64,000 bases of DNA from Parcubacteria group bacterium Gr01-1014_31 (GTDB lineage Bacteria > Patescibacteriota > Patescibacteriia > Buchananbacterales > GWA2-38-13), in contig VMFR01000007.1 of NCBI GenBank assembly GCA_007376135.1, positions 24,287-88,286 on the forward strand, given 5' to 3'. The translations under genes and the position numbers were made by a program. This document shows positions 1 through 16,859 of this stretch, one piece after another. Positions within the stretch are counted from its first letter, which is position 1. Each line of letters opens with the position of its first letter. The notes below the pieces were generated by a model. That model did not search any database, was not told the origin of the DNA, and was given only the letters and a program-made list of their open reading frames with translations.

Positions 1-1425
1 CTTGCGGCATTCGCCCGGTCCTACGTTGCCAGTATGTGGGGTATCAAGGCGCCCTTGGTCACCCTGCTACCTTTTCCAGGGTATTTTCTGTTTGGTACCT
101 CATTCCATATTGCGCTGTACTCATTCGTTCCGTTGTGGGCAGTCTTTAACTACGCATTTTATTACCTCGTGTGGCGTCTCACCTCGCTCAGGTCCGTCAC
201 GCTGCTGGCCGTCGTCGTCGCCGATACCATGCCGCTGATGTTCGGGTTATCGCGGCAGTACTTTGTTGAATTTCCATTAGCCGTTCTCGTGGTGGTCTGG
301 CTGGCCTGGTGGTGGCACGCCGTCCGCTGCTCGCGCTGGCGCTGCGTGGTCGGGGTGGGGGTGTTGTCTGGCCTGGGGCTGCTCCTGAAGGTCACTTTTC
401 CCATTTACGTTGCTCTCCCTGCGGTGGTTATGGCCTGGCAGAGCCGCCGCTCCTCCACCTGGCTCATGGGTCGAGGGTTCGCAGTGCTGTTCCTGGCCAT
501 CGCGATCGCCAGTACTTGGTATGGGCCGAATTTTTCAACCGCGATGGATTTTGCCTTCAGCACCAGCTATGGAACTATCGCCAGCGACTTTTCACTTGGT
601 CCGGTCTTTTCTCCCTCGACGATCGTTGCCTACTGGTTGCAGGTATTGCATCAAGGGATATCCGGGTACTATGGCCTTATCGGCGTTATTACGCTGCTGT
701 TCTGGCTGCCGCGATTCTCTTCCGTGCGGACCTCGCGGCCGCATGGCCGAGCCATGATGGTACTCGTGGCGTGGATAGCCGCGCCGTTGTTGGTGTTCAC
801 ATTCGGGGTGAATAAAGAGATCCGGTACATTCTGCCCGCCCTCCCCGCGCTTGCCGCGCTGCTCGCCCTGCTTCTCGATGATGTTGCAGGGAAAAAATTC
901 GGCGTATTTTCTGTTGCGGTCGGCATGCTTGGTGTTGCCGCGTACGTTGGTGTTTCGTTTTGGCCACGGCTGTTTCCACCGGCATTACCGGTGTCTGCCC
1001 TTGATTGGCGCGCGCAGCGCTATTCCTTTGCGCCTGACCCCACCCGTTGGCCCATCCCCGAACTGCACGCGCTCCTGGAATCCGACCGTCAGCGTCGCGG
1101 AGTTGCAGCTCCAGTTACGGCCCTAGTCCTGGCGAGCACGCCTGCCTTCAACCTCTATACCTTGAATTACTATGCCGAGTTAGCCAGCCCGCGGCACATC
1201 GAATACCTGGAAATCCTCTCCCAGGATGAGCAGTATGCCAATCAACTTCTCCAGGCTGCAGCGTATGTGATTGTGAAGAGTGGCGACGATGTCGGTAGCA
1301 CGGCGTTCAACCCTTTCGGTGTGGCATTGCGGGAAAAAATCCGTCACGACGATTCACTTTTCACGTTCATGGCCGAACTTTTTCTCCCGGATGGTTCGGT
1401 TGCGGCGGTGTATCGGCGGCGATGA
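1..1425 (+). CDS. Polytopic integral membrane protein, GT-C-type (ArnT/PMT-like) glycosyltransferase architecture. The 5' end is probably outside the window.
   Basis: The reading frame is open back to position 1 (first ATG at 34). It has more than 10 hydrophobic helices with aromatic-rich loops and ends with a soluble C-terminal region. Family assignment rests on architecture only. Confidence 0.4.
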   Translation, partial: LAAFARSYVASMWGIKAPLVTLLPFPGYFLFGTSFHIALYSFVPLWAVFNYAFYYLVWRLTSLRSVTLLAVVVADTMPLMFGLSRQYFVEFPLAVLVVVWLAWWWHAVRCSRWRCVVGVGVLSGLGLLLKVTFPIYVALPAVVMAWQSRRSSTWLMGRGFAVLFLAIAIASTWYGPNFSTAMDFAFSTSYGTIASDFSLGPVFSPSTIVAYWLQVLHQGISGYYGLIGVITLLFWLPRFSSVRTSRPHGRAMMVLVAWIAAPLLVFTFGVNKEIRYILPALPALAALLALLLDDVAGKKFGVFSVAVGMLGVAAYVGVSFWPRLFPPALPVSALDWRAQRYSFAPDPTRWPIPELHALLESDRQRRGVAAPVTALVLASTPAFNLYTLNYYAELASPRHIEYLEILSQDEQYANQLLQAAAYVIVKSGDDVGSTAFNPFGVALREKIRHDDSLFTFMAELFLPDGSVAAVYRRR

Positions 1426-1489
1426 GGGTGCCGGGCATTGATTGTCGCGGTTTGCGACCTGTGCTACTAATATATTGAAAGGTATCAAT

Positions 1490-1879
1490 ATGAAAGTCGT
1501 GCAGCAAAAAAAAGTGCTCATCGTTGAGGACGAGCCAAGTTTGCTGGAGCTGTACCGGTTGGCGTTGGAGCAGGCGGGGTTTTCGCTGTTCACGGCCGTC
1601 AACGGCGACGCCGGCTACTTATTGGCCAAGGGTAATCCCGTGGATCTGATCCTGCTAGATATTCTCATGCCCAAGGTGGACGGCTACGCAGCCCTGCGGC
1701 ACCTGAAAAATGACCCGGACACCAAGGAAATTCCGGTCATCATTTTTTCCAATTTGAGCCAGAAAGAGGAGATCGAAAAGGGGTTAAAACTCGGGGCCAA
1801 GGATTTCGTCGTGAAAACCAGCGTGACCCCCAAGGCGTTGGTGGAAAAGGTAAAACAGTGGGTCAGTGGCGACGTTTGA
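1490..1879 (+). CDS. Stand-alone response regulator receiver (CheY-like), ~130 aa, no output domain
   Basis: MKVVQQKKVLIVEDEP...DLILLDILMP...KD at the end. This is the classic receiver acidic pocket, phospho-Asp and conserved Lys pattern. The internal ATG at 1490 has a better context than the ORF-track start at 1442. Confidence 0.8.
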   Translation: MKVVQQKKVLIVEDEPSLLELYRLALEQAGFSLFTAVNGDAGYLLAKGNPVDLILLDILMPKVDGYAALRHLKNDPDTKEIPVIIFSNLSQKEEIEKGLKLGAKDFVVKTSVTPKALVEKVKQWVSGDV

Positions 1880-1913
1880 CCGGGGCAGGGTTCCGTCCTA
1901 CAATATTTCCATT

Positions 1914-2129
1914 ATGAAAAAGCCCGTCGTGGACCGCGCCAAGTGCATCGGGGCCGCCGCTTGCGAGTCGGTCTGTCCCGAAGTATTCAAAGTGGATACC
2001 GAAGGCAAGGCCACCGTCATGGACGGCATAGACTACGAAAAGTATAAGGATAAGATCGCCGATGCCATTGAAATGTGCCCGGTCGCCGCGATCGCCTGGG
2101 AAGAGCATGAAGAAAATCCGGGGAACTAG
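1914..2129 (+). CDS. Small single-cluster ferredoxin (~71 aa)
   Basis: CIGAAACESVCP ... MCP cysteine motif of short [4Fe-4S]/[3Fe-4S] ferredoxins. Start taken at internal MKKPVV (1914). Confidence 0.65.
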   Translation: MKKPVVDRAKCIGAAACESVCPEVFKVDTEGKATVMDGIDYEKYKDKIADAIEMCPVAAIAWEEHEENPGN

Positions 2130-2221
2130 CCGCCATTCCGGGTTCGGGAAAACCGCCTAACGGCGGTTTTTTGGTTGACGTCGCGTCAAAATCGGTGCTA
2201 ACGTAAGCAAATAGTACGCGT

Positions 2222-5200
2222 ATGGAAACGGAAGAACCCCGGCAGAAAAAATCTTGGCCCGCGGAAGAGGAAATAATTCTTGCCCGCTGGCAGAAGGGAA
2301 AAATCTTTTCCAAAACTTTGGCGCGTAAATCGCCAAAAGGGAATTTTGTGTTCTACGAAGGGCCGCCGACGGCGAACGCCGCCCCCGGGGTGCACCATGT
2401 GTTGGCGCGTGTCTTCAAGGACATTATCGTCCGCTTCCGCACGATGCAGGGCTACCACGTGGAACGAAAGGCCGGCTGGGACACTCACGGCTTGCCGGTG
2501 GAGCTGCAGGTGGAAAAAAAGCTGGGTCTGAAGTCCAAACCCGAGATCGAAACGTACGGCATTGCCAAGTTCAACGCCGAATGCCGAGAGCTCGTCTGGC
2601 AATTCAAGGACGACTGGGAAAAATTGACCGAGCGTATCGGGTTTTGGCTGGACCTGAAACGTCCGTACGTCACGTATGAGAACGACTACATTGAGAGCGT
2701 GTGGTCGGTCATCGCGAAGGCGCACGCGCGCGAGCTGTTGTACCAAGGCCACAAGGTGGTGCCGTACTGCCCGCGCTGTGGCACTTCCCTGTCATCTCAT
2801 GAAGTGGCGCTTGGGTACCGAAAGATCAAGGAAGACTCCGTCTACGTCAAATGCCGCGTCACCGTTGGCAACCAGTTCGTGCAGAAGGGCGATTTCATCC
2901 TGACCTGGACGACCACGCCGTGGACGCTGCCGGGTAACGTCGCGTTGGCAGTCGGGCCGGATATTGATTATGTATTGGTAGAATTCTCCGATCAGAAAAG
3001 AGATGAAGAAGGAAATGTTGGGCATTTCAGAGCGGTAGTGGCGAAAAGTATTTTTGAATTATGGAAAAATCATCACGATTTGCCACACGATAGTCCACAC
3101 TTCCAATTCATTAGAGAAGGGGGCATTGAATATTTTTCTGGCATCTTAACAGATAAAGGAGAGGGTGCCGGTGGTAACCGCCCTCCGAAGGTCATTCACG
3201 AATTTCGGGGGAAAGATTTGGTTGGCGTTGAATATAAACCATTGTTTCCGGGAGCAGTAGAAAAAGGCAATGCAAAAGTTACTTGGCAAGTTGTACCAGC
3301 AGATTTTGTCACAACCACCGACGGCACGGGCGTCGTGCACACCGCAGTGATGTACGGCGAGGATGACTACCGGCTGGGTGAACAGGTTGGGCTGCCCAAA
3401 CAGCATACCGTCGGGCTGGACGGAAAATTTTTACCGCGCGTTACCGGTTTGGCCGGAAAATACGTGAAGGCCAAAGACACGCAGGAACTCATCTACGACC
3501 ATCTCAAGCGCAATGGCGCTTTCATGCAGACCGCACTTTACGAACACGACTATCCGTTCTGCTGGCGCTGCGATTCGCCGCTCCTGTACTACGCCAAGGA
3601 TTCGTGGTTTGTAGCGATGACCAAGGTGAAAGATGAGCTGCTCAAGAATGCTGAGCAGATCTCCTGGGAGCCCGCGCATATAAAAGAGGGGCGATTCGGC
3701 GAGTGGATCTCCGGCGTCAAAGACTGGGCCATTTCGCGCGAGCGGTATTGGGGAACGCCGCTTCCGGTCTGGGAATGCCGCGGCGGCAGAAGCAGGAAGC
3801 AGGAAGCAGGAAGCAGGGAATCGGCCGGTGAAGGTTGTGGCCATTGGCAGGTGGTGGGGTCGGTGGCGGAACTCAAAAAGTTGGCCAAAAAGATCCCGAA
3901 GGACTTGCATCGGCCGTTCATCGACGCAGTGACCTTCTCGTGTGCGGCGTGCGGCGGGACCATGCGGCGCGTCCCTGAAGTGATGGACGTGTGGCTGGAT
4001 TCCGGCTCGATGCCGTTCGCGCAGTATCATTATCCCTTCGAGAATGAAGAATTGATCGATGGTAAATTATCAACCACGAAATCCAAAAAAACCTACAAGC
4101 TACCACCTACAAGCTACAAGCTCGGAGCACAGTATCCGGCCGACTACATCTGCGAGGCCATTGACCAGACGCGCGGGTGGTTTTACACCCTGCTGGCCGT
4201 TTCCACCATCATGGGTAAAGGCACCAGTTACCGCAATGTGATTTGCCTGGGCCATATCAACGACGCCAGCGGCCGCAAGATGTCCAAGTCCAAGGGCAAC
4301 ATCGTCAACCCCTGGGATGTCATCAACAAGTTCGGCACCGACCCGCTGCGTTGGTACCTCTACACCATCAACCAGCCGGGCGAGGCCAAGAATTTCGATC
4401 TCAAGCAGATCGACGAGGTCGTCAAAAAAGTATTCCTCATCCTGCAAAACGTCGTGGCGTTCTACCGGCTGTATGTACCCAATCCTAAGGCGCAGGTGGT
4501 TCCCCCGAGAACGGAGCACGTGTTGGACCTATGGATCCTCGCGCGGATTTCCCAGTTGAGCGTGACCGTCACCGAAGCGCTGTCCCGGTATGGGGTTATC
4601 GAAGCGGCGCGGCCGATGAGCGACTTCATCACCGACCTGTCCACGTGGTATGTGCGCCGTTCGCGCGACCGCTTCAAGGCCGGCGACCCCGAGGCGATGG
4701 CCACCCTGGGGTACGTACTGCTGCAGACCGCAAAACTTTTAGCGCCGTTTACGCCGTTCTTTGCTGAATATGTGTACCGGGAAGTCGGCGGCAAGCTCGC
4801 CTCGGTGCATTTGGAAGACTGGCCGAAGCGGGAGTCCGTTGACCCGGTCGCGCTGGAAGCGATGACCAAAGCTCGGGCCGTGGTGACCGAGGGCTTGGCG
4901 CTGCGGATGTCAGCCGGGCTGAAGGTGCGCCAGCCGCTGGCCGCCGTTACCGGCCCCGCGATCGGGGCGGAGCTGCAGGATATTGTCAAAGAAGAATTGA
5001 ACGTGTTAGAGTATCGGACCGGCACGACCGTGGCGCTGGACACCGCGATGACCGACCAGCTGCGGGTTGCCGGGTTGGCGCGGGAATTGGTGCGGTGCAT
5101 CAACAACCTGCGCAAGGCGGCTGCGCTGACGGTTGCCGACCGGATCGCCGTCACCTACGACGGCGCACTCGATGACGTACTGGCGTCGCACCGCGACGAG

Positions 5201-5302
5201 GTGCTGCGCAAGACCAATGCCCTCACGATTACCACCGGAACGGGAGGAGAGCCGGTGACGCTGAACGACCGCGCAATTCTGCTGCGGATATCCAAGGTAT
5301 AA
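2222..5302 (+). CDS. ileS: Isoleucyl-tRNA synthetase
   Basis: 1026 aa. HIGH-region PPTANAAPGVHH, WTTTPWTLPGN (IleS CP1 signature), KMSKS, zinc-knuckle Cys pairs, and a C-terminal anticodon-binding region. Confidence 0.9.
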   Translation: METEEPRQKKSWPAEEEIILARWQKGKIFSKTLARKSPKGNFVFYEGPPTANAAPGVHHVLARVFKDIIVRFRTMQGYHVERKAGWDTHGLPVELQVEKKLGLKSKPEIETYGIAKFNAECRELVWQFKDDWEKLTERIGFWLDLKRPYVTYENDYIESVWSVIAKAHARELLYQGHKVVPYCPRCGTSLSSHEVALGYRKIKEDSVYVKCRVTVGNQFVQKGDFILTWTTTPWTLPGNVALAVGPDIDYVLVEFSDQKRDEEGNVGHFRAVVAKSIFELWKNHHDLPHDSPHFQFIREGGIEYFSGILTDKGEGAGGNRPPKVIHEFRGKDLVGVEYKPLFPGAVEKGNAKVTWQVVPADFVTTTDGTGVVHTAVMYGEDDYRLGEQVGLPKQHTVGLDGKFLPRVTGLAGKYVKAKDTQELIYDHLKRNGAFMQTALYEHDYPFCWRCDSPLLYYAKDSWFVAMTKVKDELLKNAEQISWEPAHIKEGRFGEWISGVKDWAISRERYWGTPLPVWECRGGRSRKQEAGSRESAGEGCGHWQVVGSVAELKKLAKKIPKDLHRPFIDAVTFSCAACGGTMRRVPEVMDVWLDSGSMPFAQYHYPFENEELIDGKLSTTKSKKTYKLPPTSYKLGAQYPADYICEAIDQTRGWFYTLLAVSTIMGKGTSYRNVICLGHINDASGRKMSKSKGNIVNPWDVINKFGTDPLRWYLYTINQPGEAKNFDLKQIDEVVKKVFLILQNVVAFYRLYVPNPKAQVVPPRTEHVLDLWILARISQLSVTVTEALSRYGVIEAARPMSDFITDLSTWYVRRSRDRFKAGDPEAMATLGYVLLQTAKLLAPFTPFFAEYVYREVGGKLASVHLEDWPKRESVDPVALEAMTKARAVVTEGLALRMSAGLKVRQPLAAVTGPAIGAELQDIVKEELNVLEYRTGTTVALDTAMTDQLRVAGLARELVRCINNLRKAAALTVADRIAVTYDGALDDVLASHRDEVLRKTNALTITTGTGGEPVTLNDRAILLRISKV
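3790..3817 (+). repeat. Heptanucleotide tandem repeat (aagcagg)x4 inside ileS
   Basis: Direct reading of ...cagaagcaggaagcaggaagcaggaagcaggg... It encodes a low-complexity insert (RSRKQEAGSRESAG) between the zinc-knuckle cysteines. Confidence 0.8.
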
Positions 5303-5305
5303 ATT

Positions 5306-6298
5306 ATGTCCATGACGATCAAGCAAATCTACCAACTCGCCATTCAGCTGGGGAAACTTTCCGATCTGCGCGGCCAAAAATCCGTCGCCAAGGTGCTGGC
5401 CCGTGCCCAGGCGCGGTACGACCACACCCCGGAAAACGACCGCTGGGAACTGGATCCGGAGGCCACGGTGAACCCTTATCTGGATTCGCGCGTGCTCTTC
5501 GACCATGGGCGTCCTGTGCGTAAAGTGTTGGCGGGTATCGATATCACCCCGTCGGATCTCATTATCGCCAAACAGTTGGGCTGCGACCTGGTCATTGCCC
5601 ACCACCCGGCGGGCGAAGGGTTGGCGGATCTGCACGACGTCATGCACCTGCAGGCCGAGGTGATGGCGCTCTACGGCATGCCCATCAACATCGCGGAGTC
5701 CTTGATGCGCGAGCGCATCACAGAGGTGGCTCACGGGGTGTCCGCGTCCAACCACCACCGCACGGTGGATGCCGCCCGGTTGCTGGACATCGGGTTTGCG
5801 TGCACGCACACGTGCACCGACAACCAAGCCGCGAAATTTTTGGATGGCGTCATCCGGCGCGCCAACCCCGAAACGCTGGGGGAGATCATTGCCGCACTCA
5901 AGACCGTGCCGGAGTACCGCGAGGCAATCAAGCGCAAGGCTGGCCCGTTCATCATGGTGGGCACGCCTGAATCGTCGACGGGTAAGATCGTGCTGACCGA
6001 TATCACCGGCGGTACCGAAGGGGCGGTCGGCATTTACGAGAAAATGTCGCAGTACGGGTTTGGCACGATCATCGGGATGCACATGGACAAGGAGCGCAAG
6101 AAAGAGGCGGCGAAGTACCACATCAACGTGGTCATCGCCGGCCATATGTCGTCCGATTCGCTCGGCATGAACCTAATGTTGGACCAGCTGGAACGCCGCG
6201 GTGTGGAAATCATTCCCGCAGCCGGGCTTATCCGCGTCAGCCGCGCCAAGGCCGCCACTCGTACGAAGGCGAGCAAGCCCACGAAGCGTCGTCGTTAA
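5306..6298 (+). CDS. Nif3/YqfO-family dinuclear-metal-centre protein (GTP cyclohydrolase 1 type 2 homologue)
   Basis: 330 aa. Conserved AHHP and metal-ligand His/Glu pattern typical of the NIF3 family. Basic C-terminal tail. Confidence 0.55.
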   Translation: MSMTIKQIYQLAIQLGKLSDLRGQKSVAKVLARAQARYDHTPENDRWELDPEATVNPYLDSRVLFDHGRPVRKVLAGIDITPSDLIIAKQLGCDLVIAHHPAGEGLADLHDVMHLQAEVMALYGMPINIAESLMRERITEVAHGVSASNHHRTVDAARLLDIGFACTHTCTDNQAAKFLDGVIRRANPETLGEIIAALKTVPEYREAIKRKAGPFIMVGTPESSTGKIVLTDITGGTEGAVGIYEKMSQYGFGTIIGMHMDKERKKEAAKYHINVVIAGHMSSDSLGMNLMLDQLERRGVEIIPAAGLIRVSRAKAATRTKASKPTKRRR

Positions 6299-6314
6299 AT
6301 TTTTCGGGGCACAC

Positions 6315-6344
6315 AAAAAAGCACGCCCAACGGCGTGCTTTTTG
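6315..6344 (+). terminator. Rho-independent terminator after the Nif3-like gene
   Basis: aaaaaagcacgcc-caac-ggcgtgcttttt hairpin followed by a T-run. Confidence 0.6.
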
Positions 6345-6401
6345 GACAGAAGAAATGAAGCATTGCCCCGTAAGCGGACGGGTATTCTGGAGGTGGAAAA
6401 T

Positions 6402-6434
6402 AAAAAAAGCGGCAATCGTTGGGAGCGATTGCCG
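6402..6434 (-). terminator. Rho-independent terminator for the minus-strand gene ending at 6461
   Basis: On the minus strand this reads cggcaatcg...cgattgccg stem followed by cttttttt. Confidence 0.5.
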
Positions 6435-6460
6435 TTGTTGGTGAAGAACAGTGAATGCGC

Positions 6461-7600
6461 TTAGAGCGCGGCGCACGCTACGCGAAGGTGGTCGCGGCTC
6501 TTGCGCACGCGGGTGCGGTCGGGTTCTTTCGAACCCAAGGTGGCGATGGTGGCGCGGAATTTTTCCGCGAGCGTGGGAACCACCGGCGTGCGCAGGTGGG
6601 CGTCATCGAGCGTCGCGAGACGAGAGAGCAGGTCCTCCAGGCGTCGCAGGTAGCGGTCGACCTGCAGGTCGCCGTTCAGGGCATCCATCTGGATCTCCAG
6701 CAGCAGGTCGGAAATGTCGGCCTGCAGCCGCTTGAGGCGGATCGCCGTTGCCAGCCGCCGCAGGGCCGCCAGCGCGACGTCGCGGTCATTGGCGTACAAT
6801 GCGTTGATGGTGGCGCGGAAGTCCGCGCTGCAGGCGCGTGCCCAGTTGGTCCAGCCGCCGAACGGCACGAGCTGCTTCACGAAATCGGCATGCGGCCAAA
6901 GTTCGTGCGTGACGGAAAGCAATGTCGCCGAAGCATCGGTGAGGTCTGCCAGGCGGCTGACGGCGCGGTTGATCTCCCGCTCGAGGGTCGGGAGAAACCC
7001 CCCGGCCAGCTGCAGCAGAACCGCGACGTCCTGTTCCCAGTGGGCGTAGTAGCCGAGCCACTCGGCGATGTCGGAGACGCGCTCCACGAACAGCCGGTTT
7101 TTGACCGGCACGAGCCGTGCGGCCAGCGCCCCGGTGTTCAGGCGTCCCTTGGCGTCGCGCAGCGGCACGACCAGCTCGACCTGGACGACGACGTCCTTGA
7201 GGGCGTGGGTGCGGGGCTGCCGCAGCGTGTCCAACACGCGCAGCAGGTCGGTTTTGACCTGGGCGAGTGCCTCGGGGGCGACCCGGCCGGCGCTGAGCGT
7301 GATGTTGGCGCCGCCGCATAGGCTGCGCAGCTCTTCCAGCGTGGGAAGGCGGCGGACGATGGTGCCGTAGTGGGCGAGTTTCAGCCCGCGGTGCAGCGAC
7401 CACACGTCGCGGTACTTCCTCCAGCGGCGCTGCTTCTTATCGCCGCGCCGTTCTCCTTCCTCCCAGTACTGGAGGAAGAATTCGCCCGTACCCTGGGCAA
7501 CGAGGATGCTCTTGGGCAGGTGGGTGATGGGGTGGGTCAGAACGTTTTTGCCGCCGTAAGGCACCCAAACTTTGCGCGGCTCAACCGTAAAGGTCAACAT
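6461..7600 (-). CDS. Hypothetical protein (~379 aa), no recognisable motif
   Basis: Long GC-rich ORF with coding-like composition. Start placed at MLTFTV (7600). No signal peptide, TM segment or catalytic motif was recognised. Confidence 0.45.
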   Translation of the reverse strand: MLTFTVEPRKVWVPYGGKNVLTHPITHLPKSILVAQGTGEFFLQYWEEGERRGDKKQRRWRKYRDVWSLHRGLKLAHYGTIVRRLPTLEELRSLCGGANITLSAGRVAPEALAQVKTDLLRVLDTLRQPRTHALKDVVVQVELVVPLRDAKGRLNTGALAARLVPVKNRLFVERVSDIAEWLGYYAHWEQDVAVLLQLAGGFLPTLEREINRAVSRLADLTDASATLLSVTHELWPHADFVKQLVPFGGWTNWARACSADFRATINALYANDRDVALAALRRLATAIRLKRLQADISDLLLEIQMDALNGDLQVDRYLRRLEDLLSRLATLDDAHLRTPVVPTLAEKFRATIATLGSKEPDRTRVRKSRDHLRVACAAL

Positions 7601-7771
7601 GGAACACGCTCCTTTCGTGGCGTGGGATTGCGGATTGTCGAGGTTCGAAAAACCTTCCCCCAACGCTACTGGGAAAATCGCCGTTTGTCAAGATTTCCCG
7701 TTGCCAAATTGGCTTGCTTTTGCTAACGTTGGGGCACGTCGGCGACATTCTGCCGGCATTCGCTTTCACCT

Positions 7772-8398
7772 ATGATCGCAACGCTGCGTGGCACGGTCAC
7801 CTATGTGCACCCGCCCCTCAAGCGCGGCAACCACCTGGTCGTGGAGGTAGGCGCGGTCGGCTACCGCGTAGAGGTGACCGGCACCTTTGTGCGGCAGACC
7901 AAGGTCGGCGCCCAGTTGCAGCTCTACACGCACCTGGAGGTGCGCGAGGATGCCCAGGAGCTGTTTGGTTTTTCCAGCCGCGACGAGTTGCAGATGTTTG
8001 AGCTGCTTATCACGGTGCAGCGCGTCGGTCCGCGTTCGGCGCTCCATGTGATGGAAGTCGTAACGCCGCTGCAGCTACGCCAGGCCGTGGCCGGCGGCCG
8101 GCCGGAATACCTGGTGGAGCACGCCGGGGTCAGCCAGCGTCTGGCGGAGACGTTGGTTGCCGGATTGCGCGGCAAGCTGGAAGAACTGGCCGCCGGTTCC
8201 GGCGCGGCGCACGGCGCACGGGGCGGCCATGCCGAAGCCAGCGAAGCCCTTCAGGCGCTTGGGTTCTCCGTTCAAGACGTGCAGCGTGCGCTCGTGCAAA
8301 TCCCGCTCGACGACGATTCCAGCGAGGCAGTCATCCGCGCGGCGTTGAAATTACTGGGAGAGCGTTCCACCAAACCGGGGTCGCCCCCCGGCCGTTGA
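7772..8398 (+). CDS. ruvA: Holliday-junction DNA helicase subunit RuvA
   Basis: MIATLRGTV...VGYRV (OB-fold domain I), HhH domain II, flexible linker and C-terminal RuvB-contact domain. Confidence 0.85.
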   Translation: MIATLRGTVTYVHPPLKRGNHLVVEVGAVGYRVEVTGTFVRQTKVGAQLQLYTHLEVREDAQELFGFSSRDELQMFELLITVQRVGPRSALHVMEVVTPLQLRQAVAGGRPEYLVEHAGVSQRLAETLVAGLRGKLEELAAGSGAAHGARGGHAEASEALQALGFSVQDVQRALVQIPLDDDSSEAVIRAALKLLGERSTKPGSPPGR

Positions 8399-8585
8399 AC
8401 CGCCGTTTTTTTTCCGAACATCGCGCCCTTTCCAGACCGGTTTGTCGGCACACCTTTCCCCGCCCCCTCGTAGCTTCCGCCCGAGGCGGATCCGCCTGGG
8501 GCGGACAATGGATACCTACCCCCCAGTTGTCGGGTTTATGGTGAGAAGAAATTGATATTGTTGTTTTGCATGGTTCTTTGCCTTT

Positions 8586-8657
8586 GCGCCCATAGCTCAA
8601 TGGATAGAGCACCGGCCTCCGGAGCCGGTGATCGAGGTTCGAATCCTCGTGGGCGCA
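8586..8657 (+). tRNA. tRNA-Arg (anticodon CCG)
   Basis: Cloverleaf folded by hand. Acceptor GCGCCCA/UGGGCGC, D-arm GCUCAAUGGAUAGAGC, anticodon stem CCGGC/GCCGG with loop CUCCGGA, T-arm CGAGGUUCGAAUCCUCG, discriminator A. CCA is not encoded. Confidence 0.85.
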
Positions 8658-8687
8658 GTGGCAAAGAACTCAGCAGAGGCAGGCGGG

Positions 8688-8767
8688 GAGCACCGGCCTC
8701 CGGCTCGTCCGCCGGAGTCCTGTGAAGGTGGAAGCCGGTGGTCGAGGTTCGAGTCCTTGTGGGCGCA
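8688..8767 (+). pseudogene. Partial tRNA-Arg copy (D-stem 3' side through discriminator) carrying a 29-nt insertion between positions 37 and 38
   Basis: gagcaccggcctccgg[ctcgtccgccggagtcctgtgaaggtgga]agccggtggtcgaggttcgagtccttgtgggcgca. No matching 5' acceptor or D-arm lies upstream. Confidence 0.55.
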
Positions 8768-8932
8768 GTGGTAGGAGGCTGATTTTTTGTTTCCCAAAAT
8801 GTACTTTTCGTAATTGAGGTTATACACACCCCAGCATCTATTTCTATTGATATTTATAAGTAATGAATTTGGTACGATTTTATTTTCGCGAATAAAATTG
8901 TCTTATTTTAGCAAAATATTTATGTTATCCTC

Positions 8933-8961
8933 TTGCCAATTATGGCTTGTCGTGATATAAT
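8933..8961 (+). promoter_or_regulatory. Sigma70-like promoter (TTGCCA-17-TATAAT) inside the AT-rich spacer upstream of the dockerin-module gene
   Basis: Hexamers and a 17-nt spacer read directly from the sequence. Located ~75 nt upstream of the ATG at 9036. Confidence 0.4.
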
Positions 8962-9035
8962 TAATAAGTATTCACATTTCGTCCTAAATTTACTTATTTA
9001 CCCCGCGCCTCATGAGGGCCGGGATTTCGATAGTT

Positions 9036-11659
9036 ATGAAACAGGCTCAGACGATTTCGCGGGTGACCGCGTTCCTGGTGAGCGCTTTCTGTTTTACGGT
9101 GGCGCTCGGTCTGTTCGTGTATGCCGGCTCGGTCGTAGCGGCAAACTCGAACGGAAATACTAACAGCTCTCCGACGCCGACCCCCTCGGCCACGGCGACA
9201 CCAACACCGACGCCGACAGCCACGCCGACTCCGACGCCAACCGCTACCCCGACGCCGACGATTACCGTCACTTCCCCTAATGGCGGTGAGCAGTGGTTTC
9301 GTGGCAGCACGTACCGCATCACCTGGCAAATCAGTGGCAACGTACAGAGTGTGATTGTGCGGTATCTGAACACAGCCGGCAATTCCTGGGTTATCGCGCA
9401 GCTGGACGCGGCGCTGGGCGGCCACGACTGGACGGTGACAGAGGGTGTACCGACCGGCCTCTACCGCATCGAGGTGGCCGATGCCGTGTACAGCTCGCCG
9501 GTGAAAGACGCCAGTGATACTACGTTCAGTATTGTCGCGCCACCGGCGCCGAGTCCGTCACCTTCACCGACCGCGACGGCAACGCCCACGCCGACCCCGT
9601 CGCCTACGCCGACGCCAACCCCGACGGCGAGCCCGGCCTCTTCACCGGTTCCGACCGTATCGGCAACGCCGACCCCAGTTTCCAGTCCTACCCCGGGCGC
9701 CTCTGCGACCCCAACCCCAACCGCTACCCCCTGGCCAACGGTAACGCCATCGCCGCAACCATCGGCAACGCCGAGTCCGTCAACCAGCCCTCAGCCGACC
9801 GCTTCCGCGACGCCGACGATGACTCCTTCGCCGACCCTGATCCCGTTGTCCCCAACAGCCGGGTTCATTCGCGGCGATGCGAATGGCAATGGCGTCATTG
9901 ATATTTCCGATACGGTCCGCATTTTGGACTACAATGCGGGGCGTGCCACGCTGTCGTGCCTAGACGCCGCCGACGTCAATGACGACGGCACAATTTCCGG
10001 AGTCGACGCCGATGCGCTCCAGGGTTACTTATTCCTCGGCACGCACCCGGCGCCCCGTGCGCCGTTCCCGACCCGCGGTGCCGACCCCACAGCGGACCGC
10101 CTGGGTTGCAGCCAGGTGCCAAGCCGATTCACCCCCCTCGCTGGCGTGACTTTCTTGCGCGGTGACGCTGATGGTAACGGCCGCGTGGACCAGTCCGATA
10201 CCGTCCGGATCCTGGGCTACTTCAATGGTACCGGCCCGGCCCCGACCTGCCTGGACGCCGCCGACGTGGACGATGACGGCTGGGTCAGCCCGTTCGATGC
10301 CGCGCGCCTGCAGCGGTGGCTGTTCTTGGGCGGTGCGGCACCTGCAGCGCGACGCCGCGGCCTTCCGTTGCTCCGACTCCGACGAGTTCCCCTCGTCCGT
10401 TGCCCACCCCCGCCGCAGCGCCGACGATCACGCAGGTCGGACAGTTCCTCCGCGGTGATGCCAATGGCGATGGCAAGCTGGATATCTCCGATGCGGTCAC
10501 CATCAATACCATGATCCATCTGGGAGGTACAATCGCCTGTCTGGATGCGGCGGACGCGAATGACAATGGCGGCGTAACTTCGGCTGATGCCGACTATGTG
10601 CTCGCCTATCTGTTCCGCGGCGGGCCAGCGCCGGCCGCACCTTACCCCGCCAAGGGGAACGATTCGACCGCTGATAGTCTGAACTGCGGCGAACAGGGCG
10701 GTGGTGCTTCCGGCATCTCCTTCTTGCGCGGAGACGCGAACGCCGATGGCCGCGTGGACCAGTCCGATACGGTACGTATCAACGAGTACCTGAATGATCG
10801 CGGCAGCATCAGTTGTCTGGATGCCGCCGATACGAACGACGATGGCGTGGTCAGCACGATGGACGCCCGCGCGCTGCAGGGGTTCCTGTTCCTCGGCAGC
10901 TACCCGTCGCCGCGCCAGCCCTATCCGACGGTCGGTTTGGACACGACGACTGACGGCTTGGGATGCGCCGCGTACCGCGGCAGCGTCGCGCCAACACCAA
11001 GCGTAAGCCCTTCCCCCAGCGCATCACCGACGGTAAGCCCGACACCGAGCGGTTCGCCACAACCGTCCACGAGCCCGACGTCCAGCGCCTCGCCTGCGGT
11101 TTCGCCGACGCCCGCCCAGTCGCCGGTTCCTCCGGGCGCAACGGCGCTCTACATCCGCGGTGACGCCAACGGCAGCGGCGGATTGGATATCTCCGACACC
11201 GCCCGCATCTTGGATTACCTGGTTGGTCGCGCGTCGATCGCCTGCTTGGATGCCGCCGACGTCAATGATGACGGGCAGATCACCGACGCTGACGCCGATG
11301 CGATCCAGGGCTACCTGTTCCTCGGTACGCATCCGGCGCCCCGTGCGCCGTTCCCAACCCGAGGTGCCGACCCGACAGCGGATCAGCTTGGCTGCACGCA
11401 CGTGCCGTTCCGGCTGACCCCGCCAGCCGTGACCTTCCTGCGCGGCGATGCCGACGGCAGCGGCCGCATTGACCAGGCCGACACCCTGCGCATTTTGAAC
11501 TACTTCAACGGCATCGGCCCGGCCCCGACCTGTCTGGACGCCGCCGACGTGGACGATGACGGCTGGGTCAGCCCGTTCGATGCCGCGCGCCTGCAGCGGT
11601 GGCTGTTCTTGGGCGGTGCGGCACCTGCAGCGAGGACACCACTTTCTATCTTTCTATGA
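9036..11659 (+). CDS. Secreted multi-dockerin-like protein: signal peptide, Thr/Pro-linkers, a small beta-sandwich domain and six dockerin-type EF-hand-pair modules. The reading frame is broken by a 1-nt frameshift near 10347.
   Basis: Signal peptide [20 protein letters not shown]. Six repeats of GDANG.G..D.SD...IL.Y...G...[11 protein letters not shown]....D...L..YLF.G. The frame 0 to frame 2 switch is exactly where the second terminal module reads AAPAARTP. The 3' end overlaps the next gene by ATGA. Confidence 0.6.
10231..10350 (+). repeat. 120-bp near-identical intragenic repeat (copy 1 of 2; partner at 11513-11632)
   Basis: Direct comparison shows one mismatch over ~120 nt. The frameshift lies at the 3' edge of this copy. 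Confidence 0.8.
11513..11632 (+). repeat. 120-bp near-identical intragenic repeat (copy 2)
   Basis: See copy 1. Confidence 0.8.
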
Positions 11660-12987
11660 TGAGACGATTGCTCCGCCATCGTATTCCGAATTTTATCGTT
11701 GGTTGGTACCACTGGGGTTTGGCGCATTGGGCGAACATTTGGTACCGCCGGCCGTCGGAACGCCTGATGGTCATCGGTATCACGGGTACGTCAGGGAAGT
11801 CGACGGTCGCGGCGATGACCGTCGGCATTCTGGAAGACGCCGGGTATACGGTCGGCTTGGCGTCGACCATCAGTTTCAAAGTGGGAACGATCGAGCGTCC
11901 GAACGACACCAAAATGACGATGGTCGGGCGTTTCCAACTCCAGAAGTTGCTGGCGCAAATGGTGAAAGCCGGCTGTGATTTCGCGATCATTGAAACGACA
12001 TCGCTTGGCATTGCCCAGTCGCGGCATGTGGGCATTCACTACGACACGGCGGTGCTGACCAATCTGTACCCCGAGCATATTGATGCGCACGGGGGGTTTG
12101 AAAAATACGTCGCGGCCAAGCGCGAGCTGTTTTCTCACCTCCAGCGCTTGCCGCACAAGACGATCGCCGGTATGCGGATCCCCAAGACCATCATCGTCAA
12201 CCTTGATGTGGCGCGATCATCTGAGTTTCTTGCATCCCTCGTGGATAAAAAGATCGGCGTGACGACGAAGGCGCGCTACGATATTTCCGGCGTCGAGGAG
12301 CTGCGCGGGGAGGTTTTACACAATGCGGGCCGCGTGGGTGTGCGGGTGCTGGGCGAGGATCTGTGGCTTGCTCTGCACGGCGAGCATAACGCGGAAAACG
12401 CCCTGCTCGCTGCGGCGATCGCCCGCGCTCATGGGGTGTCCTGGACGCACGTGCGCAGCGGTCTAGCCAGTCTGGCTGCACTGCCGGGACGCATCGAACG
12501 CGTGGATGCCGGCCAGCCCTTTACCGTCATTGTCGACTATGCGTTCGAACCGGTCGCGATGGAAAAATTGTATACGGTCGTTTCCGCGTTGCCGCATCGG
12601 CGGGTGTTGCAGGTGCTCGGAACGACCGGCGGCGGACGCGACCGCGATCGTGGCGAGGTGCTCGGCCGGATGGCCGGACGTTTCGCCGATTACGTCGTTG
12701 CCACCAACGAAGACCCCTACGATGATGATCCCGCAATGCTGGCAAGCCGCGTGGTGCGCGGCGCCCAGGCCGAGGGGAAGACGCTCGGGAAGGACCTGCT
12801 CTTTGAACTTGATCGTCGTCGTGCGATCCGTCTGGCCCTGCGGGAAGCAAAAGCTGCTGACGTCGTGCTGGTGACTGGAAAGGGAAGTGAACAGGCCATG
12901 GTGGTGGTGGGGAATAAGAAGGTACCGTGGGATGACCGCGCAGTTATTCGGGAGGAAATTTCCACCCTCATTTCACAAGCTCGATAG
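11656..12987 (+). CDS. Mur-ligase-family protein, MurE-like (UDP-MurNAc-tripeptide synthetase-like) with a short N-terminal domain
   Basis: P-loop VIGITGTSGKST, TNLYPEHIDAHGG (cf. MurE TNLSRDHLDYHG), DYAFEP (cf. DYAHTP), and a C-terminal Mur-ligase domain. Start MMRRLL overlaps the upstream stop. Confidence 0.7.
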   Translation: MMRRLLRHRIPNFIVGWYHWGLAHWANIWYRRPSERLMVIGITGTSGKSTVAAMTVGILEDAGYTVGLASTISFKVGTIERPNDTKMTMVGRFQLQKLLAQMVKAGCDFAIIETTSLGIAQSRHVGIHYDTAVLTNLYPEHIDAHGGFEKYVAAKRELFSHLQRLPHKTIAGMRIPKTIIVNLDVARSSEFLASLVDKKIGVTTKARYDISGVEELRGEVLHNAGRVGVRVLGEDLWLALHGEHNAENALLAAAIARAHGVSWTHVRSGLASLAALPGRIERVDAGQPFTVIVDYAFEPVAMEKLYTVVSALPHRRVLQVLGTTGGGRDRDRGEVLGRMAGRFADYVVATNEDPYDDDPAMLASRVVRGAQAEGKTLGKDLLFELDRRRAIRLALREAKAADVVLVTGKGSEQAMVVVGNKKVPWDDRAVIREEISTLISQAR

Positions 12988-13088
12988 CGTGCCGCGGTGT
13001 GGATAACCATAGAGGTGAGGTATATTTTGTTTTCGTTGAGCAAAAAAACGTTTTTTTGTTTTCCACAGTGTTTATGGTCTCCCGGGAT

Positions 13089-13117
13089 TTGACAAATTTT
13101 TGTGATTGTGATAGATT
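13089..13117 (+). promoter_or_regulatory. Candidate sigma70-like promoter (TTGACA-17-TAGATT) that would give a ~350-nt rpoB leader
   Basis: Read directly from the sequence. Only intergenic candidate upstream of rpoB. Confidence 0.35.
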
Positions 13118-13469
13118 TTTGCCACTACTGAATGCTCTACCGTGATGGGTTTTGGCCTTTTGCGGTTGGAGCAGCGGCGGCGACCATGGAATTTCGCCGC
13201 TGTCGGCCTGGGGTTTTACCGCCGGGCAAAATAAAACGCGAGGATCTCACCTGCAGAACCTTGGACTGTAGGTTTTGAGTCTGTAATCCCTCAACCGACA
13301 CCTTCGGCGCGCGGTAATTTTTGCCCCATCGCGGGGCGCGCAGCCAGGGTTTCCGCCACGGGATTAACCACCCCCACCGTGGGTAGCGTTGCGCCACACC
13401 AATAACTTCATATCATTTTTTACCCTCGTCTCCACCGGGAGAGGAGATCTTTTTGTTTGTCCGCTGCCT

Positions 13470-16859
<3,390 letters not shown>

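Follow-up and report, generated by a model that had tools for sequence, protein, structure and literature searches.

Introduction

Local assembly errors are a recognised hazard of metagenome-assembled genomes. Assemblies made with IDBA-UD are reported to be particularly prone to them, and one of the described cases affected the gene for a repeat-containing protein in a CPR genome (Chen et al. 2020, Genome Res 30:315, PMC7111523). The locus examined in this study also lies in an IDBA-UD scaffold of a CPR organism. In the deposited sequence, a gene for a multi-dockerin protein is interrupted by an apparent frameshift, which falls exactly at the edge of a near-identical repeat within the gene.

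An earlier sequence-only reading of this DNA had offered three explanations for the lesion: an assembly error at the repeat, a recent inactivating mutation, or slippage-based phase variation of a surface protein. The comparisons presented below support the first of these and lend no support to the other two. We are highly confident that the apparent frameshift arose as a local error when the deposited IDBA-UD scaffold was assembled, and that the organism carries one intact gene encoding a protein of 916 aa. The small remaining doubt mostly concerns a variant with two real deletions, which is formally conceivable.

Materials and methods

The window, meaning the whole 64,000-nt stretch of DNA that was analysed, was taken from an 88,921-nt scaffold assembled with IDBA-UD and assigned to the MAG 'Parcubacteria group bacterium Gr01-1014_31'. 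The deposited scaffold was built with idba_ud defaults, in which the largest k is 100. Material from a 0.1-um filter of the Greene well, Ohio, collected in October 2014, was sequenced in a groundwater study whose data are held under PRJNA512237 (PMC6730927). The label 'Gr01-1014' probably stands for Greene, 0.1 um and 10-2014.

Our independent assembly is the MEGAHIT contig k139_644634 of ENA ERZ27284378 (288,251 nt), cited by coordinates as L161, with L164 from a second look-up. This contig and the Logan contigs of run SRR8863434 were retrieved by exact-product look-up of RuvA. Matches were obtained for RuvA and for a beta-lactamase-like ORF; exact-product look-ups of the Mur ligase, the first ORF of the locus (P0001) and three other window ORFs gave no match. 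Logan contig SRR8863434_290785 (L163) comes from a run that is part of PRJNA512237, the Ohio groundwater project. ERZ27284378 and SRR8863434 are linked to the MAG by project and by 100% identity, and may derive from the same filter sample. A sister MAG, E14_metabat.bin.16 (JAUSGZ01; a MEGAHIT k141 assembly), was found in a scan of GTDB genomes and is referred to below as E14.

Three further searches returned little. A 26-mer lying just to the right of the junction had 0 matches in the JGI metagenome collection, a protein-guided metagenome scan recovered distant dockerin proteins only (at most 55% identity), and a homologue search yielded no close relative for the middle of the gene, the best match besides the protein itself being 46% identical.

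Results

The locus as deposited

In the window, the dockerin gene is preceded by RuvA and a tRNA-Arg gene and followed by a Mur ligase family gene. The frames of interest are as follows.

9012 to 10514, plus strand: ORF of 500 aa ending in an Arg-rich tail; exact match to TSC75619.1, 'hypothetical protein G01um101431_1172'
10316 to 11659, plus strand: ORF of 447 aa in the -1 frame relative to the first ORF; Thr/Pro linker and four more dockerin modules
11656 to 12987, plus strand: Mur ligase family gene TSC75621.1; the 4 nt (ATGA) that it shares with the ORF upstream are an artefact of the second mis-join described below

The break between the first two ORFs, to which the sequence-only reading had drawn attention, is present in the window: the frame changes directly after 10349, at the repeat edge. 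Adding 1 nt at 10349-10351 also reproduces the 874-aa ORF, starting from the ATG at 9036, that had been predicted from such a repair. Removal of the CG of GCGCG restores the frame just as well.

The sequence around the break bears on two explanations in which the frame change would be functional. Slipped-strand phase variation, switching the frame of a surface protein on and off, would suit a surface or secreted repeat protein, and a change of one CG unit in the GCGCG at the site would alter the frame. However, positions 10340-10360 contain neither a homopolymer nor a tract of at least three repeat units, and GCGCG is the only element of this sort at 10330-10365. Programmed -1 ribosomal frameshifting, or transcriptional slippage, might instead join the two ORFs, and the downstream ORF does lie in the -1 frame relative to the upstream one; yet around 10330-10365 we found no A/T run and no slippery heptamer X XXY YYZ.

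Two blocks are absent from the deposited scaffold

Comparison with the ENA contig by blastn gave three blocks, each 100% identical and ungapped.

L161 230-10579: window 1-10350
L161 10676-11958: window 10350-11632
L161 12103-16627: window 11632-16156, continued by L164 to 32108

Over window 1-32108, an independent assembly without the lesion is therefore otherwise identical to the deposited sequence, with 0 substitutions. The sole differences are an additional 97 nt in the ENA contig after 10349/10350 and an additional 145 nt after 11632, giving a total of 242 nt missing from the window at two positions.

10349 to 10351, plus strand: mis-join 1, 97 nt absent, with a 1-nt placement ambiguity on a C; the window reads CACCTGCAGCG joined directly to CGACGCCGCGG
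11632 to 11633, plus strand: mis-join 2, 145 nt absent, with a 1-nt placement ambiguity on a G; the window reads CACCTGCAGCG joined directly to AGGACACCAC
Undeleted version, at both repeat copies: GCAGCG followed by CCGCATCCGACC

The 97-nt block reads CCGCATCCGACCCGCGGTACCGACCCGACCGAGGATGAATTGGGGTGCGGTGCAGGTGGCGGCGCCGGCTCGATAATTTCGCAGCCGGTAGTTTCCC. Its translation, PHPTRGTDPTEDELGCGAGGGAGSIISQPVVS, comprises the tail of dockerin module 2 and the start of a linker, and leads in frame into the downstream sequence. The 145-nt block holds the tail PHPTRGTDPTDDELGCGS, a TAA stop, a terminator-like hairpin (L161 12036-12063; a stem of 12 pairs preceding a T-rich run) and most of the intergenic spacer, the end of which reads ...CCGTG and then AGGACACCAC in the ENA contig. 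The left end of each missing block directly follows one and the same CCTGCAGCG in the repeat, at a distance of 96 nt from the last base that distinguishes the two copies, and the right ends lie in unrelated unique sequence.

Because 97 is 1 mod 3, the first join looks like a one-base frameshift. The single nucleotide that had been thought missing is in reality this 97-nt block, and the terminal copy that had served as the intact standard is itself cut short by the 145-nt loss. The second mis-join (window 11632-11659) had gone unreported.

Further sequences agree with the ENA version. Logan contig L163 starts within the tail of module 6, holds the 145-nt block and is then 100% identical to window 11632-16508. 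The sister MAG E14 shows ~93-94% nucleotide identity across the upstream region and the first half of the gene. Its gene closes with the same tail and stop, and a hairpin and spacer separate it from its Mur ligase gene, an arrangement collinear with the ENA version, not with the window. Furthermore, modules 2 and 6 of the window are the only ones without a PxPxxGxDPTxDxLGC extension, which is found in modules 1, 3, 4 and 5 and in every module of homologues P0002-P0005; the ENA version gives modules 2 and 6 this tail as well.

These results also bear on the converse possibility, that the window is correct and that the ENA and Logan assemblies contain spurious insertions. Beyond the formal symmetry of a two-way comparison nothing speaks for it, and we regard it as scarcely credible: the extra blocks encode a canonical in-frame dockerin tail, a stop and a terminator, they were recovered by two different assemblers, and collinear sequence is present in E14, a separate species-level MAG. 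Phase variation is likewise extremely improbable, given that the intact version differs by a 97-nt unique coding block and not by a change in repeat units, and that a second block is missing at the other repeat copy. Nor is recoding needed, because the ORF is continuous in the otherwise identical assembly; the relatives also read straight through, and a programmed frameshift can in our judgement be set aside almost entirely.

A more substantial alternative is that the window represents a real strain variant, i.e. a sub-population in which recent mutations have removed the 97 and 145 nt, leaving a truncated secreted protein and an unexpressed remainder. De Bruijn assemblers normally spell only k-mers that are present in reads, so the junctions could exist, and the repeat could plausibly promote illegitimate recombination. 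Against this, two independent deletions would be needed, sharing the same left coordinate in the repeat and having unrelated unique right ends; 0 of 32,108 nt otherwise differ from the undeleted assembly; a deletion whose right flanks are non-homologous could not be transferred by gene conversion; and the scaffold comes from an assembler known for local errors of this type. The lesion is not reproduced in the independent data, where the ORF is intact (916/924 aa in L161), which argues against the recent inactivating mutation put forward earlier. We therefore consider a real variant very unlikely. Similarly slight is the chance that the junctions are genuine low-frequency, repeat-guided deletions, through which a truncated, two-dockerin secreted form would exist beside the six-dockerin protein. 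If real, such recombination would be one way for a CPR episymbiont to vary a surface protein.

The restored gene and its product

With both blocks in place, the deposited coordinates are to be read as follows.

9036 to 10349, plus strand: 5' part of a single gene; signal/TM segment, Thr/Pro linkers, Ig-like domain and dockerin modules 1-2 to ...LGGAAPAA
10350 to 10514, plus strand: false Arg-rich tail of TSC75619.1; the DNA is really the linker and the start of module 3, read in another frame
10351 to 11632, plus strand: continuation of the gene through its middle and 3' part; a linker, then dockerin modules 3-6 to ...LGGAAPAA
11633 to 11659, plus strand: true non-coding leader of the Mur ligase gene, misread in the window as a dockerin C-terminus, 'RTPLSIFL*'

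Window 9036-10349 is identical to L161 9265-10578, where the frame continues, and window 10351-11632 is 100% identical to L161 10677-11958, where it is in frame with the 5' part. An alternative ATG lies upstream, at 9012. The restored gene forms one ORF, L161 9241-12015, encoding 924 aa, or 916 aa from MKQAQ. The 874-aa continuous product obtained by one-base repair does not correspond to the real protein of 916 aa. The gene ends with TAA, followed by the terminator hairpin and a spacer of ~111 nt before the Mur ligase gene.

At its N-terminus the 916-aa protein has a hydrophobic signal/TM segment; Thr/Pro linkers, an Ig-like domain and six dockerin modules with full, Cys-containing tails make up the rest. 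Dockerin_1 (PF00404) matched the restored protein in six stretches with a score of 152.6 bits, against a Pfam gathering cut-off of 22.9, and was found by Pfam in both window ORFs. The Ig-like region gave matches to Big_7 and Kre9_KNH that were below Pfam thresholds. The product is secreted or membrane-anchored. Going by its domain family only, it would take part in calcium-dependent, dockerin-type binding at the cell surface, and might conceivably contribute to attachment in this CPR organism. No cohesin was found among the genes seen near the locus.

The Thr/Pro-linker region is badly handled by gene callers. The ENA annotation starts the dockerin gene internally (655 aa; L161 10048-12015, plus strand), although the ORF is open from L161 9241, and it calls a spurious antisense ORF within the linker (minus strand; L161 9276-9602, window 9047-9382).

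A near-identical repeat in dockerin modules 2 and 6

Both mis-joins lie at a repeat shared by modules 2 and 6, the copies of which are truncated in the window.

10232 to 10349, plus strand: repeat copy 1 as in the window, truncated; the true copy is 168 nt long (L161 10461-10628)
11515 to 11632, plus strand: repeat copy 2 as in the window, truncated; the true copy is L161 11841-12008

The window copies are identical at 117/118 positions, the single difference being a C/T at 10253/11536. This bears out the earlier description of a repeat of about 120 nt with one mismatch, except that the pairing of 10231 with 11513 given there was off by 1-2 nt. In the window the copies are offset by 1283 nt, which is 2 mod 3; in L161 the true copies are spaced 1380 nt apart and are in frame. 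At full length they are identical at 166/168 positions, with a perfect run of 128 nt between the two mismatches. Immediately to its left, identity between these modules drops to ~75%, the level also seen in the rest of the duplicated two-module unit, and the step in identity at the repeat edge is far beyond chance. No other repeat longer than 50 nt occurs in the 64-kb window. Since window 32109-64000 is without such a repeat, mis-joins of this kind are not expected there.

This abrupt step from ~75% to ~99% identity within a duplicated unit is the pattern expected of ordinary gene conversion between surface-protein modules. The E14 stretch homologous to the repeat differs from this genome at 19/150 sites (~87% identical). 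The E14 assembly breaks at the same repeat: the end of its contig 14 (L001 7224-7358) and the start of its contig 46 (L053 1-135) overlap at 135/135 nt, and these overlapping ends point to two copies in E14 also. The E14 piece with modules 3-5 is absent from the bin, presumably being too short for binning.

Two other accounts of the repeat region were considered, namely a gene-conversion tract from module 6 to module 2 ending in a non-homologous join, and an alignment of the last 24 repeat bases of the window to the extreme end of the E14 gene. Both are unnecessary given the missing blocks in the ENA contig.

Flanking genes

The start of the Mur ligase gene (window 11599-12987) is annotated in three ways, giving proteins of 443 aa (NCBI), 406 aa (ENA) and 459 aa (Logan), and the 459-aa version uses an ATG within the block that is absent from the window. 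On the other side of the dockerin gene, tRNA-Arg(CCG) lies at 8585-8658. A 39-nt stretch covering the tRNA 3' end and the next 3 nt (8623-8661) recurs with 92% identity at 8733-8771, ~110 nt downstream, and may have been left behind by an integration or duplication event there.

Discussion

Taken together, the two lost blocks, the uninterrupted ORF found in independent assemblies and the location of both joins at the repeat suggest how the deposited sequence may have arisen. Because the perfect run of 128 nt is longer than the default largest k of IDBA-UD (100), the assembly graph would not have been resolvable at this point and contigs would have ended inside the repeat. The scaffolder would then have butted each left-hand piece onto the next unique contig without Ns, dropping 97 nt in one case and 145 nt in the other, and the second of these joins would have run module 6 straight into the Mur ligase leader. 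Abutment by the scaffolder with loss of the gap sequence is thus the probable last step. Consistent with this, the lesions lie at the limits of a repeat longer than that k, and the same 128-nt run is shorter than the k of 139 of the ENA contig, which resolves the repeat. A shared stopping coordinate inside the repeat is what would be expected of an assembler, and the two window junctions would be predicted to lack read support. The simplest formal versions of the process do not account for every coordinate. A simple k = 100 de Bruijn model reproduces neither the right-hand ends of the blocks nor the 96-nt left offset. Under a simple unitig model, k = 97 rather than 100 matches the left ends, and no one value of k matches the right ends.

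Three deposited records around the site are affected. The 55-aa Arg-rich nonsense tail of TSC75619.1 is false. The ORF from 10316 is false as a separate gene, and its deposited CDS lacks the N-terminus and carries the false C-terminus RTPLSIFL*. Finally, the ATGA stop/start overlap by which translation seems to be coupled to the Mur ligase gene is false as well. More generally, when several bases are lost at the edge of a repeat and their number is 1 mod 3, the result can mimic a point frameshift exactly, and this calls for caution when pseudogenes or phase variation are called from uncurated MAG scaffolds. The case itself carries little biological weight and its main value is as a correction; the modest real biology lies in the gene-conversion-like repeat shared by modules 2 and 6.

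Among known systems, the lesion most resembles the local errors in short-read MAG scaffolds, above all those of IDBA-UD, described by Chen et al. 2020, with which it shares an intragenic repeat, a CPR genome, a wrong public protein and its discovery through a second assembly. It differs from those cases in that bases were silently lost at two joins without Ns, and in that a loss of 1 mod 3 mimics a point frameshift; additionally, the artefact is known here from assembly comparison. The homogenised pair of modules 2 and 6 recalls the concerted evolution of tandem modules, and the sister MAG probably has its own homogenised version, but here only one pair among the six modules is homogenised. 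The protein itself resembles Dockerin type I proteins (PF00404, including non-cellulosomal ones) in its six Pfam-significant stretches and paired calcium loops of the DxNxDGxxDxxD type. Unlike typical members, it belongs to a Parcubacteria (CPR) host and is without a catalytic domain, and its modules carry the PxPxxGxDPTxDxLGC extension with a second Cys, as do those of Planctomycetota-type homologues.
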